Source of the DNA: Octopus vulgaris
Lineage: Eukaryota
Reading direction: 5' to 3'
Length of the DNA stretch: 64,000 nt
Assembly (NCBI GenBank): GCA_951406725.2
Contig: OX597828.1
Span: 53,134,001 to 53,198,000 of the forward strand
A program made the translations under genes and the position numbers. How positions within the stretch are numbered: the first letter of the stretch is position 1; the number at the start of each line of letters is the position of its first letter. Below, piece by piece: positions 10,489-62,560 of the stretch. Under the pieces are notes generated by a model that saw only the letters and a program-made list of their open reading frames with translations, was not told where the DNA came from and did no database searches.

Positions 10489-10770
10489 TATGGCAGAAAT
10501 TCAAAAGATAGTGGTCATGGGAACTGCTCATATCCTACGCAAAATACTTTCTATGTAATCTCAAGGTTTAAAACAAACATAATTTTCGGTTTAAAAAAAA
10601 AAAAAAACTATTTTTAGACATTCATTAGTACAACACCCCCACCCCCCAAATATATGGCACACTAGGCATAACAACAACATGAACTTCCAACCCTGTTGTC
10701 TCTTGAGGTCTCTGGGTGAGACTTGGAGCTAACTTGTACAAACATAAAGCAAAAGTCAAACATAGAATAA
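10489..10770 (+). mobile_element. R4/Dong-like non-LTR element 3' end
   Basis: EIQKIVVMGTAHILRKILSM* (RLE C-terminus), then a 3' UTR running into (TAA)n. Confidence 0.75.
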
Positions 10771-10796
10771 TAATAATAATAATGATGATAATGATG

Positions 10797-12030
<1,234 letters not shown>

Positions 12031-13099: not shown

Positions 13100-14540
13100 A
13101 AAATTTGAAACAGTTCACCGAATCGCTTGTCCAATGGTTATTCTGGAAGCGCGCCTGTCAGGAGGTTGTCAGCCTGACGGCGAAAGATTCTCTAAAGGCA
13201 GAATATCTTCCCCGAAAACGAACCTGGAAGGTCACTTAAACGGGATTTGTCACAAATTAAGCCAAGTTCACCACCACAACGACCACAAAATCAAAAATGT
13301 AAAAGAACTAAATGGAACCAGGAAGAATATAAAGAAGTAATATACGCTTATTACTTTGCATTAAGTAGGCCAACCCAAGAGAAACACACCGCAAACTCCT
13401 ACAGAATTTGGAGGAGCTGGAATCCAGCTAGCAGGCCAAACCTGGATGAAAACAGATTAGCAAATGTTAGAAGAGATATCTTCAGAAATACCAGACTCAC
13501 AGAAGTGGAGGCACATGGCCTAGTGGTTAGAGCAGCGGACTCACGGTCGAGGGATCGCGGGTTCGAATCTCAGACCGGGCGATGTGTGTGTTTATGAGCG
13601 AAACACCTAAGCCCCACGCGGCTCCGGCAGAAGGTAATGGCGAAACTTCTGCTGACTCTTTCGCCACAACTTTCTCTCACTCTTTCCTCCTGCATCTTGC
13701 AGCTCACCTGCGATGGACCGGCGTCCCGTCCAGGTGGGAGACCTATATGCCAAGAAACCGTGAAACTGACCCTTATGAGCCAGGCATGGCTCGAGAAGGA
13801 ACAAACAGACTCACAGATGCAGAATTAGCCTCAATTAAAAAAGTGGTAGTGAATGACCTAAATATAAGTCAGGAAAGAAATAAAGAAGCAGAGAAGAGGA
13901 ATGTTGGACCACGAGGATTGACTGAAAGGCGACCATCTACCGAAACCACTCAAGAGCCTGAAGAAAAAAGAAAATATAATGACCCTAGAAAAAACAGCCA
14001 GTAAAATGATATCGAAACAGAATTTGAAGACCACATATTTGCTGAACAGCACAGAAAATCTCTCATTGAAATGAAGCAGGAAGTTCTGAATGAGCATGCA
14101 GCTGTAGGGCATACAAATATGAATGATAGGGAACCACTCCATAAACTCTCAAATGCACACCAACATAAAACACAAGTAAAAAATTGGCAACTGCGTTACA
14201 AAAGAAATCATACAACAACTAAAACTCGATCTTAAGTTAAATGAAATTATTTACTCTGTTGCTAAGGTAATCGAAAGACGCTGTTTAACAACCAAAAAGC
14301 CAACAATACTAAATTCGAAAACAAATTCAAACTGGAGGAGTAGAATTGAAACTGAGATTGAATCATTGCGAAGGGAGATATCAATATTAACTGAGCTAAT
14401 CTCTGGAAATGATGTAAGATCAAGAAAAGGAAGGAATATTGTGAGAAAATATGGACTCTCAACAAGAGAAGAACTAATATCAGCGAAAGAAACACTTAAA
14501 CAAAAAGTTCAATCAGAAGATCAGAGAATACGCAGATTTT
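13100..14540 (+). mobile_element. R4/Dong-like ORF N-terminal region, degenerate, interrupted by a SINE
   Basis: RTKWNQEEYKEVIYAYY...YRIWR...LDENRLANVRRDI...LT[SINE]DAEL; later WRSRIETEIESLRREISIL...ETLKQKVQ...RIRRF. Confidence 0.7.
13504..13805 (+). mobile_element. SINE family C with 12-bp TSD, inserted in the R4/Dong ORF
   Basis: TSD cagactcacaga at 13492-13503 and 13806-13817; V-domain-like ctgcgatggaccggcgtcccgtccagg. Confidence 0.9.
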
Positions 14541-14848
14541 AGAGCAGTGGGGAATATTCTCTCAATTTCATGGACAGGCGAGGTAACTCAACTCTAATAA
14601 TACCTGGGAGTGATGTACATCGATGTCCCTCCATTTTGAGGTTTGTCAATATCACGTACCTGAACAGGATCGAAGATGAATTATTTCGCCAGGCAACAAC
14701 TTATATGCTTATAAAGTGCAAACCATCTGAATGTATGCCCGAACAATGCTTACGTAAGAATAAATTCAAATAGGAAATGAAGCGGCACTAGTGTAAACAT
14801 CGATAAATAAAGCACTGCTTCTATTTCATATGTGAATATATACATATA

Positions 14849-31589: not shown

Positions 31590-31880
31590 TGCAGTAGTGG
31601 CCGTGTGATAAGAAGCTTGCTTGCCATCCACATGGTTCCGGGTTCATACCGACTGCGTTTGCACCTTGGGCACCTTCTGCTATAGCCTCGGACTAACCAA
31701 AGCCTTTCGAGTGGATTTGGTTGACGGAAACTGAAAGAAGCCTGTCGTATATATATATATGATATGGTTGTGTGCCTGTGTTTGTCCCCCAAACATCATT
31801 TGACATCCGATGTATGTGTTTACGTCCCCCTAACTTCGGCAAAAGTGACCGATAGAATAAGTACTAAGCTTACAAAGAAT
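31590..31880 (+). mobile_element. SINE family A
   Basis: Head and body match. Confidence 0.8.
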
Positions 31881-32046
31881 ATATATATATACACATAGAT
31901 ATGTATGTAGTAAGCCATACTATTTATTTACCTCCAAGGCGGAAGATTCTTTGTAACCCTAGTAAGCCTAGGGGGGACAAACACAGACACACATATATAT
32001 ATATATATATATACTTTATTTTAAGCAGCAGAAAATTCAACAAAAT

Positions 32047-32084
32047 CTGTTACTCTGAGTTTCTCGTTGCCGTTCATCAGACAG
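32047..32084 (-). ncRNA. Minimal type-I hammerhead ribozyme (inverted copy)
   Basis: Exact reverse complement of 32101-32138. Confidence 0.8.
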
Positions 32085-32100
32085 TTGTTGCTAGCAAAAA

Positions 32101-32138
32101 CTGTCTGATGAACGGCAACGAGAAACTCAGAGTAACAG
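32101..32138 (+). ncRNA. Minimal type-I hammerhead ribozyme
   Basis: CUGU-CUGAUGA-A-CG-GCAA-CG-A-GAA-ACUC-A-GAGU-A-ACAG: intact core, stem I CUGU/ACAG, short stem II, self-complementary stem III, GUA cleavage triplet. Confidence 0.8.
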
Positions 32139-32223
32139 ATTTTGTTGAATTTTCTGCTGCTTAAAATAAAGCATATTACTCTACCACTGGTATTTGAGTA
32201 CTCTTTTTTCCACCTTGTTTCAC

Positions 32224-32260
<37 letters not shown>

Positions 32261-34078
32261 TACGACAGGCTTCTTACATTTTCTGCCTGCCAAAACCACC
32301 CACAAGTCTTTGATCTGCCCCAAAGATACTTGCCTAATGTACCATGTAGTGGTACTGAACCCAGAATCATATGGATTGGAGCAATCTTGTTACCACACAG
32401 CCATGCCTGCACCTACATATGTACGAATGCTTTGTGTGTTACGTATCTATATGCATGCATGCATGCATGTATGTATGTACGAACATGTGTGTATGTATGT
32501 ATGTATGTATGTATGTATGTATGTATGTATGCATGTGTGTATATTATGCATGCATCTCCCTGTATTCTAAGCTTTCATCGTGTTATCAGCAGCGAAACTG
32601 TATAAACGAAGACGAAAACAACCGATTTTCAAAACATATATAGTAACTGCCATGATTCCCATTGGAGGAGACCTATGATGAAGACCGGGACCACCTTTCT
32701 GCTTTCATCATAGCTCTCCATGACCTGCTTGTAAAGCATATACTAGCATATTTAATCCCTTTGTTTGGTCAGCTTATCTCTGATCAAGCAGACAAAAGAG
32801 CAATGGTTGGCTATATTTTTCTTTCTTTAGCAATTTCTAAAAAAGAGGAAGACCGTACATATAAAATTGAAATATTTATAATGTTGTGTATTAAAAATAT
32901 CCTTTGCTTTAGAAAACCCATCTACGCTTATCGGCTATCAGACACGATTTTACATCTAAAATCGATCGCATTATCGAAGATAAATCCCAAAATCAGTGAA
33001 TGTGCGCAGAATTTATATAAGTGTTATGAAAGAAAATGGAGTAAGTAACACGTCGCATTGCATAATACCACAATTGTTTCATAACCACTTTAGCGGAAGA
33101 CCACTGCTGAAATATTATATAATATATAAAATAGTACATCGCTACATCCCTATTTTCGCAAAACTGGCAAATGTTGATTCTTCAGGCATATTTACAACCG
33201 TTTTGTTATTTAAGCCTTATTTGATAGAATATATCAGAATATATCAACTCACGTTGATAATATAATTTCAGTCGTTGATGGTAAAATTTCACATTGGTGA
33301 TATAATTTCAATCGGAGTTTAGCGGAGATTGTTTGTTTTGTCAAACACATGTCTGATAATCCACATATATCCACAGGGATTTTAAAATTGTATCCAACTA
33401 GAATGGAGAAAGTAAGTTTGATTATACATAATTCTGAAGAGTTGAATTTTGATACATGTCAATGACCACTCATCAGTGAGGAGCTGCATTCATTATTGCA
33501 TAATATGGCAATATTCATGTGATCGACCGAAGATGAAACAATTGTAAATTGATGTAATAAAAGGACTCGCTGACTAAATTCTATTTTTTGGTGTTTTTAT
33601 TCGAATTCTTTGGATTTTTTGTTGCTTAGTTATGAGTTGCACAGTGATCGCCAGTTTACTGAAATTCTTTTTAATTTCGATATTAGAAGCAGTACGTAAA
33701 CTATGATGTCTGTGTGCACGAGCTCTGTTCAAAATGAACTTCGATGTAGGATGTTGCATCCGACGCAATGCCATCTTATTACCATATTAATATATTTAGT
33801 TCGCCATCATCCTGTTTATCATTCTTGCTTAATCTGTAGGGATGATGGGCGTAAATTTGGTTGCTAGAAATAGCAAGCAAGCCCCCAACTACTTAGTGGG
33901 TCCATGAAGAGTTGGGTCTCAAGGTGATTGTATGGTAACCTAGCTCAATACACAGTGTTTCCCTAACCATGCATACACACAAACTAATTATATATATATA
34001 TACATACACATATATTTATATATGTATATTTATATACATATATACATATACATATATACATACATATATATGTATATA

Positions 34079-42175: not shown

Positions 42176-42568
42176 AGTTGTTTTGATACATTTCTATAGT
42201 CGTCGTATGTAGATGTGATGTTGTGTGAAGATTTCTCACACCGAGTGAAATGACGGTAGGATCTTTCGAAAGACTTATATAATCAGTCACCTAAGGAGAT
42301 GCATTTTACATCTGGGATGTATGATAATGATTACGCAGAAAATCACCCATGTACTAAGGGTGTAGAAAAGTGTCGAAACAATTGTGGTGGTTCTAAATAA
42401 AGAATGTCTTTCTTTTCATTTTCTATCATTTACATATATATATATATATGCATTTGTGTGTACATACACTCAAACACACACACGCACACACACACTGTCA
42501 TAAAATATATGTCGCAAATACACACTATATGTTTAATATATGTATAATACTGAGAAATATACCCATCA

Positions 42569-60344: not shown

Positions 60345-62560
60345 TATGTTTCTTTATTAGCTACACAGACGGGACAGATTACTAAGTAGAGCTTTTCTTG
60401 GGGGGAGGGGGGTAAGTTTCCGATCAAAAGGGATCGTAAAAGGGAAAGAAAAAACAATTTTTTAAAAAAGAAAAAACGATCAATAGGGATCGTGTATCAA
60501 AGAAATGTCATGATGTAAAGTGTAAAGGGGGAAGCAGATAAGGTTTATCCGTTGAAAGAAAAGCCTACGGAAAAGACCACGGTAGTCTCGGTCAATAATG
60601 TCACATGTTAACACATTTTTTTGCAACTAAGTAACCCTCAGTTTTAAATTTCTCCTGGTTCATATGCTCAAGTTGGCTTCGTCATTCATACGTGCCATCC
60701 TTGATACATTCACCCATCTTTTTTTGAAACATTCGCTACACAAAACTTGCCTCTCTACTCTCACTTTGCTTTTCAAGTGATACTTGAAGAATTTGATGAG
60801 AGATTGACTAGAGAGGAAAGTGTTTGTCTCTAATCCTTTCAGACGCGTCCACCAGACACATTCTTTCGCCATAGCCACAAGAATGATAAAAATAGCTCTC
60901 CCTTCTCGTTTGAAGGAAGGAGGCGTGACAATATTGACGATAGATTCGGCTGATAAGCCGACTCGTCCTACACGTGACAGCAGTCGTTCGACATAAGCCC
61001 ACAGGTCGGAAATTGCTGGACACTGCACGAGTGCGTGCAGACCGGTTTCGTCGCTCTGACCGCATCTCGGGCAGGTTAGCCCCGTGTTTCTCGAGCCGTG
61101 TCTGTAGAGCTTATCCCGAACGGGTAGCGCTTCTCGGTAGCATTACCAGGCCAGGGATCTCTGGAAGTTGTCCATGTGTCCTGGCCCGAAAGTTATCCTG
61201 AAAAGGCGGGTCAGGTATTCCTCGTCGACGTCCAGGTTCGCCCCAAGATCGTCGTCGTACCTCCCCTCCACTAATTCCCTATAGAATGCTTGGGTTGTGT
61301 TGAAGTCACTCAAGGTCGACCCGGGACGGCATAGTTGCTTGAGAGCAACGTGACACTCGCGGTGCCATTCGCCCTTCCTCGGCCTCTTTTTGATCCACGA
61401 CAGCAGTTCGGTCATGGAGACGAGTTGCGGGAAAGCGCGCCTCACAAACGGTGACCACACCTGTTCACCGTCGTCTACGTAGAGCCTGAGATGTCGCAGT
61501 CTCAGCGCGTGTCTGCGCATCATCAACCACGACATGTCCAGTCCTTTTAACGGGTGTTGACAGCAAATGGATCACCTGACCATCGGGACGCATCCTTTCC
61601 ACAAGAAGCGAAAGAGAATGCGTTCTAGTTTGGTGATGGTAGGGTCGGGACAAAGCACAACGGTCAGACGGTAGTAGATGACGGACGTGATGTACGTGTT
61701 CACCACCTCCACCCGACCTTTTAGGGACAGTTTCCTCTCGGCCCATTGCCGGGCGAGACTGACTACCCTACTCGTTATCTCGTTCCAGTTCTCGATTTAG
61801 AGGTTCGGACCAAACTAGCCCCCGAGCAACTCGACCGGACCGTCGGTCCAGCGTCCTATGGCGGAGGTGCTGGTGGATGGCATGGGCTTGCTTCTCCAGG
61901 TGCCGAGCCGCAAGCCTACTGACTGTTCCCGGTTGATTTTCACTCCTGTCACCGCTTCGTAGTCTTTCAGTGTCTCGTCGACCAGTTCGATGTGCTCGTG
62001 GCTAGACACTATGACGGTGACGTCGTCCACGTATGCAGACACGCTCGTCCCGCAACCTAATTCTCGCGGGATGCCCCTCAGAGTTGCCAGCTTCCGCAAT
62101 AATAACTCCACGGTCAATACGTAGAGAAGCAACGAGAGGGGACATCCCTGACGAACCGAACGTGCAATGTCGAAAGGTCTCGGTAGATGTCCATTTACGC
62201 GAATTACCGAACGGATGCCTCTGTACAAAGCGGCTATCCAGCCGCGGAAGACGGGACCGAAACCAGCCGCTCTGAGGACAGCCTCCAAGTACCGGTGGTC
62301 TACCCTATCGAAAGATTTCGATTGATCCAAATTGATCAGGGCCCCACCCATGCAATGTTCCTTAACTATCCTGTCTATGATGTAGTGCATCAGATGGTGG
62401 TTGTCATGGATGCTCCGACCCCGCCCGGCGCACATTTGCGCCCTGTCGACCAGTTTCTCGATGACAAGCGCCAACCTCTTGGTTAACACTTGGCCAAAAT
62501 TTTCAAATCTGCATTAAACAGAATGATGGGCCTAAGTTTATCTATTACGACCCCTTGTTT
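60345..62560 (-). mobile_element. Tx1/L1-clade LINE, 5'-truncated ORF2 with frameshifts and 3' UTR
   Basis: RPIILFNADLKILAK, GRSIHDN, LDQSKSFDRVDH, SVRQGCPLS, SAYVDDVTV, C-terminal CPRCGQSDETGLHALVQCP knuckle; AATAAA at 60358-60353 followed by (TATC)n. Confidence 0.9.

Follow-up and report, generated by a model that had tools for sequence, protein, structure and literature searches.

The locus examined here is genuine but ordinary: it is the shortest insertion form of a very abundant Penelope-like element (PLE) of a known kind. In the window, the whole stretch of 64,000 nucleotides of Octopus vulgaris contig OX597828.1 that was analysed, two 5′-truncated copies of the terminal repeat (pLTR) of a high-copy PLE with Hydra-clade motifs occupy a (TA)n tract as an inverted, back-to-back pair, probably the dead-end product of a single insertion event. 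What the family adds is the pairing of a tailed with an untailed arm, the concordance in length of the two arms, and a pile-up of short arms 13–19 bases upstream of the ribozyme. The family thus offers a natural data set on PLE insertion, whose value lies in its end statistics and not in the single locus. The accessible text of PMC8557442 and PMC11167929 treats as open both the origin of the inverted ends and one-sided tails of PLEs and the question of in vivo cutting by their hammerheads.

A palindromic pair of pLTR arms splits a SINE

A palindrome of 158 bp was found at 32014–32171, with a lone mismatched pair at 32087/32098, as the initial annotation had described it. Positions within the element are numbered from the first C of the hammerhead core (position 0), negative numbers being upstream. 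The two cores point outward, the plus-strand core starting at 32105 and the minus-strand core at 32080, with a spacing of 24 bp. The features of the locus are:

31968..31992, minus strand: host SINE, short part past its TA tract (about 20 bases aligned)
31993..32013, no strand: left (TA)n, half of the split target tract
32014..32171, no strand: palindrome, two 5′-truncated pLTR copies back to back, sharing a self-complementary 4-base CTAG at 32091–32094
32014..32094, minus strand: left arm, pLTR −14 to +66, without tail, with a private substitution at 32087
32040..32091, minus strand: mirror hammerhead motif of the left arm, core starting at 32080, predicted cut at 32051/32050 by symmetry
32091..32229, plus strand: right arm, pLTR −14 to about +124, tailed
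32094..32145, plus strand: minimal type I hammerhead motif of the right arm, with extended stem I, a 2-bp stem II and a palindromic stem III at 32125–32133
32172..32229, plus strand: PLE tail, about 13 bases short of the usual tail of about 71 bases
32227..32262, no strand: right (TA)n, half of the split target tract
32263..32405, minus strand: host SINE head, up to the internal TA tract, about 71% identical to a neighbouring copy

The minus-strand host SINE is split in two by the insert at its internal TA tract, so that the flanks are two parts of one SINE, and the right arm runs to about 32229 before TA sequence follows; both the position inside a SINE TA tract and the extension into (TA)n had been noted before. 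For the remainder of the 3′ half of the host SINE, no alignment was found beyond the roughly 20 bases past the TA tract. Related SINE copies are present across the window. A second copy (31591–31881, plus strand) lies directly upstream and faces the host SINE, and a read-through transcript could pair the two. The window copy is of the common family type apart from one private substitution and a short tail, whose shorter end recurs in loci L076 and L115 (2 of 50 loci with the exact junction). The insert is 99% identical to a copy of the element with an intact frame, in agreement with the earlier view that it is very young.

The hammerhead motifs are of the dimer type

A hammerhead pattern search of the window returned a minimal motif on each arm, pointing outward on opposite strands, together with one unrelated loose match at 42563. 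No hammerhead family was present among the best 150 of 370 Rfam matches for the window. In the right arm the core lies at 32105–32111, GAAA at 32122–32125 and GUA at 32132–32134, and the predicted cut falls after 32134. In the predicted ensemble of the monomer, stem I was stable (p > 0.9 for most pairs and 0.43 for the one closing the core), stem II consisted of just 2 bp with p about 0.8, and stem III had p = 0.0. Stem III paired solely in a two-molecule cofold, and in the full palindrome it is masked by the hairpin. Thus, the initial annotation, which had all three stems forming, was right for stem I and, at p about 0.8, for the 2-bp stem II, but stem III forms in the predicted dimer cofold and not in the monomer; its description of the motif as a minimal hammerhead working as a dimer fits this result.

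Predicted folding gave −133 kcal/mol for the hairpin of the full palindrome versus −12 kcal/mol for a lone arm. A transcript of either strand would carry the antisense arm first and the sense ribozyme second. Because the hammerheads sit on opposite strands, each transcript has one ribozyme and not two, and no second sense ribozyme in cis was found in the palindrome. Given such a hairpin, with the antisense arm leading and a lone sense ribozyme, the predicted folding makes it unlikely that this locus cleaves itself. It had been suggested that a transcript could either self-cleave or fold into double-stranded RNA (dsRNA); a hairpin of about 79 bp is indeed predicted for such a transcript, but the energies do not leave an even choice between the two outcomes. 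According to the accessible part of Cervera and De la Pena (2014; PMC4209133), a single minimal motif shows no cleavage and dimers show little. The metazoan PLE hammerheads described there are, like the motif here, minimal and dimer-type, with low expected activity. In Schistosoma, the same source gives dual opposite-strand motifs 100–700 bp apart, whereas here the cores are 24 bp apart and the parent has Hydra-clade motifs.

An A>G variant was seen at 32121, adjoining stem II, at about 20–33% of depth in DNA-type runs. RNA editing at this position was rejected, since the change occurs in DNA-type runs and is hence a family variant.

The parent is a high-copy Penelope-like element

Genome-wide copies were counted by exact pattern matching. 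The results showed that the 34-base hammerhead has 1,850 + 1,824 = 3,674 exact matches in the 2.8-Gb genome, compared with 0 for the control, and that longer copies carry a PLE open reading frame. Many of the listed matches form outward-pointing pairs, from 10 bp to more than 5 kb apart. From tandem copies, the parent unit measures about 3.36 kb; its open frame of 727 codons has its first ATG 205 bases past the hammerhead core. This single frame encodes a reverse transcriptase (RT) and an endonuclease-like region. Nearly all loci inspected have TA runs bordering the arms.

Of 7,999 candidates that were scored, 1,761 proved related to the encoded protein (P0001, 727 aa) at E ≤ 1e-20. Its predicted structure (pLDDT 86.7) matched telomerase RTs in the top four fold matches, at E about 1e-8; Pfam returned no family for P0001 or three homologues, and a sequence search of solved structures with the parent protein returned no match. 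The C-terminus shows a GIY-YIG-like pattern (VVY...YTG...R) in the alignment, and homologue P0004 carries PF01541, which we take to be the GIY-YIG family; the fold matches listed for the P0001 model included no GIY-YIG structure. The YRDD motif is invariant across a 25-sequence alignment, and P0001 carries RWK and DKT, a CxCX5C linker, and CxxC and CxH in the surroundings of a conserved E and N, without CCHH. Those first five motifs are marks of the Hydra clade in the accessible text of PMC8557442. Judged by its motifs, the parent is therefore a Penelope-like element of the Hydra clade; the 727-codon frame and the telomerase-like predicted fold bear out the Penelope-like origin proposed at the outset.

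At the motif level, a hammerhead is present at both pLTRs of the tandem copies in loci L036 and L037. L037 (G000:C1:64213500-64223000) holds four hammerheads in a back-to-back arrangement of two nearly complete tandem copies; in one of these the 727-codon frame is uninterrupted, and the locus shows that templates can be longer than one unit.

Insertions pair a tailed with an untailed arm

Fetched loci were aligned with the natural copy in L037 as reference. The insertions are inverted pairs of 5′-truncated copies, from less than 200 bp to more than 5 kb long, with end points at +66 for one arm and about +138 for the other. The arms of the window, read earlier as an inverted partial pLTR, are likewise 5′-truncated pLTR copies back to back.

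The exact palindrome junction, without the substitution of the window copy, was found at 135 other loci. Among 50 of these that were classified, 42 combined a short arm with a tailed one, 6 a shorter arm with a tailed one, 1 a part-tailed with a tailed arm, and 1 a short arm with a duplicated arm. Tail sequence occurs on both arms of L086. The variant at +58 was concordant between the arms in all 38 scorable loci of the 50 (A/A 31, T/T 7, mixed 0); as it is identical in both arms, whether A or T, the same junction must have arisen in at least two subfamilies.

A sample of 100 arms was taken as the first 100 on contig C1 with an exact 26-mer, which corresponds to the first 64 Mb. The result showed that 51 were untailed and 49 tailed. 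They included 33 pairs, of which 32 joined one tailed and one untailed arm and 1 was tail/tail. The length class of the two arms matched in 33/33 pairs (21 short-short, 12 long-long; Fisher p = 3e-9).

Two loci show further arrangements. In L104 (G000:C6:27163380-27164030), one arm has a direct hammerhead duplication with two close same-strand cores, a possible cis dimer and the only such duplication among the 50 exact-junction loci. Two separate palindromic stubs of the family lie within 730 bp in L071 (639–878 and 1367–1606).

Short arms cluster upstream of the hammerhead and not where it is predicted to cut

Of the 5′ ends of the 100 arms, 31 lay at −13 to −19, 1 at −11 and 27 were scored at +29 to −9; none fell between −20 and −38, 2 lay at −39/−40, and 39 reached further, ends beyond about −60 being alignment break points counted merely as long. 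The two arms scored +28/+29 are indel artefacts, because hammerhead sequence continues upstream of them. Genome-wide, exact matches fell from 2,686 (−14) to 1,935 (−17) and 1,550 (−22), and across the 7 bases spanning the predicted cut from 4,476 to 4,126, a loss of just 350; these drops also include point mutations. Neither the genome-wide counts nor the 100 arms revealed a hot spot of truncation where the hammerhead is predicted to cut. The 5′-end counts thus place the cDNA ends 5′ of the ribozyme instead of at its cut site.

The sequence from −19 to −13 is a heptamer with A at −17 that we take to be initiator-like, a short and common motif. As a counterpoint, the region of −17 could also be taken for a splice acceptor or for the edge of the extended stem I. 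In L037 (5120–5152) and its copies, the sequence immediately 5′ of the hammerhead can be read as a branch point, a pyrimidine tract and an AG acceptor at −12/−11; the AG is missing from some older copies. The intron of Drosophila Penelope ends at helix I in the accessible part of PMC4209133.

Of 43 short loci compared, 5 had no adjacent inverted partner. In the remaining 38 short pairs, the longer 5′ reach belonged to the untailed arm in 17 and to the tailed arm in 12, with no difference in 9, so that simple copying of one arm from the other does not account for the pairs. The arms overlapped by 1–9 bases at the junction in 28 of the 38 pairs.

Origin of the inverted pairs

The end statistics suggest that two cDNAs ran off the 5′ end of uncleaved RNA, and the tail/no-tail and arm-length counts fit paired priming on one pLTR. 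The element protein would nick both strands of (TA)n, and two cDNAs would be primed at internal sites, +66 and about +138, of one pLTR on uncleaved RNA. If the front pLTR were engaged, both cDNAs would run off the RNA where it begins near −17, probably at the transcription start; they would then pair by way of the self-complementary CTAG and, after trimming and fill-in, give the palindrome. If the rear pLTR were engaged, both arms would be long. The hammerhead would be a passenger here, and a read-through transcript would fold to a long hairpin without cleavage.

This scheme has precedents in the anole PLE (PMC11167929, as far as its accessible text goes): the protein cuts and extends both strands in vitro, RT starts at two internal RNA sites bounding the tail, hammerhead cleavage is dispensable, and the protein is predicted to be a dimer. 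Counts from young copies speak for paired priming on uncleaved RNA, and from them an RNA 5′ end is predicted at about −17. Read-through of −17 in the front pLTR is seen in some tandem copies (L036 to −104, L037 to −584), and thus longer or circular templates exist. Against paired priming stand the one tail/tail pair, L086 and the 5/43 partnerless short loci, and later deletions at palindrome centres could be a source of asymmetric arms. A literature search by title returned no published twin-priming account of PLE inverted ends, which does not show that none is in print. A more specific form of the proposal is tentative: one complex would prime two cDNAs at two fixed sites of the same uncleaved pLTR, with run-off at the transcription start and CTAG pairing when that pLTR is the front one, and the majority product would be a hairpin gene of about 80 bp, leaving about a thousand potential dsRNA sources per burst against the element.

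Alternatively, the mirror arm may be made by fold-back self-priming at a junction palindrome, later central deletions then making the junctions uneven; the element would be the same and the product again a dead end. Junction palindromes in rotifers are read as self-priming on an antisense template in the accessible part of PMC3846280, and here the commonest junction is a perfect palindrome and the arms of one locus are often mutual closest relatives (L031, L032, L033, L046). However, an untailed arm that is longer 5′, as in 17/38 short pairs and several long ones (for example L038, −3191 untailed versus −2170 tailed), is hard to derive in this way. An untailed arm cannot template the tail, a hairpin loop is impossible with a 4-base palindrome, and neither the wall at −17 to −19 nor the length concordance is explained, so that we regard self-priming as rather unlikely. 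An assembly or library fold-back artefact is a negligible prospect. Fold-back chimeras can yield perfect palindromes, and no contig from four sequencing runs spans the whole locus; yet the arms stop at two fixed, element-defined points and differ by a private substitution, a single interrupted SINE surrounds the insert, and the pattern recurs genome-wide, the same junction being found at the 135 other loci beside many variant junctions.

Two further possibilities concern what the short palindromes do. They could be a non-autonomous retrozyme- or MITE-like element, with one or a few master loci whose transcripts are copied back by the Hydra protein. One exact junction common to 135 loci and the retention of both RT start sites in every unit would suit such an element, and non-autonomous PLE derivatives have been published (10.64898/2026.07.22.740005, accessible part). 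Nevertheless, both +58 subfamilies contain the same junction, junctions grade continuously between +85 and −19, nothing from the promoter side beyond −14 is retained, the RNA would be a predicted hairpin of −133 kcal/mol, and the fetched loci contain no tandem arrays of the unit; this origin is very improbable. The palindromes could also be by-products that act, inside host transcripts, as a candidate dispersed source of dsRNA for silencing of the parent or ADAR editing, much as the initial annotation had put forward a putative off-switch or siRNA source. The predicted near-perfect hairpin of about 79 bp on either strand, the at least 136 loci with the junction, and the small RNAs that Penelope copies yield in rotifer and Drosophila (PMC3846280, accessible part) are in line with such a role, but no host gene was recognized by eye in the long frames of the window, and A-to-G was not in excess among single-arm substitutions (1 A>G, 3 T>C), a count that bears on recopied RNA only. 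A search by title gave nothing on PLE palindromes as siRNA hairpins, which does not show their absence from print. Judging from the predicted fold, a dsRNA source is physically sound and compatible with paired priming on uncleaved RNA, although we think such a role improbable here.

Comparison with known systems

In the accessible part of their paper, Craig et al. (2021; PMC8557442) already describe the inverted truncated copy, the one-sided tail, the hammerhead and the insertion into (TA)n for the Hydra clade. Its PLEs, such as Penelope-13_HM, Hydra-2_Amil and Hydra-1_Obim, have, like the element here, a single RT frame with RWK, DKT and CxCX5C, their C-terminal endonuclease corresponding to an endonuclease-like region here; they also have the same (TA)n target, a type I hammerhead with palindromic stem III, and the same inverted 5′-truncated copy at the 5′ end; Penelope-13_HM has its attached inverted copy with a hammerhead on each strand. 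In contrast, the element here belongs to another family and has a 2-bp stem II, a unit of about 3.36 kb versus less than 3 kb, a tail of about 71 bases versus 30–40, and thousands of young copies, and its hammerhead differs from that of the octopus family Hydra-1_Obim.

The Penelope of Adineta vaga (Arkhipova et al., 2013; PMC3846280, accessible part) likewise shows back-to-back pLTRs with a palindrome or microhomology at the junction, an optional tail on one arm, and an initiator-like motif in the pLTR. It has few copies and palindromes of 18–38 bp, whereas here ORF-less stubs are the majority of the sample. Unlike in the account given for A. vaga, simple self-priming is disfavoured here because the arms are asymmetric.

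Non-LTR retrozymes (accessible parts of PMC7229834 and 10.64898/2026.07.22.740005) are also small, non-coding and related to PLE pLTRs, with type I hammerheads, but they are head-to-tail repeats of 150–450 bp that give circular RNAs, whereas here two inverted arms leave a single sense ribozyme on each strand. No head-to-tail tandem of same-strand hammerhead units was found, the cores in the window being on opposite strands; the same-strand tandems observed are full units of about 3.35 kb, and the sole local duplication is that in L104. The retrozyme-like label of the initial annotation was not upheld, since junctions also vary and recur in two subfamilies, and identity with a non-LTR retrozyme was rejected because the pair is inverted.

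Recently active Penelope-like families in an octopus are reported in the accessible part of PMC13282606, which gives no description of inverted stubs of this sort. Elsewhere in the window, translations inspected by eye revealed fragments of other non-LTR retrotransposon frames at 60660–62513 (minus strand), 13196–14542 (plus strand) and 10766–11209 (plus strand).
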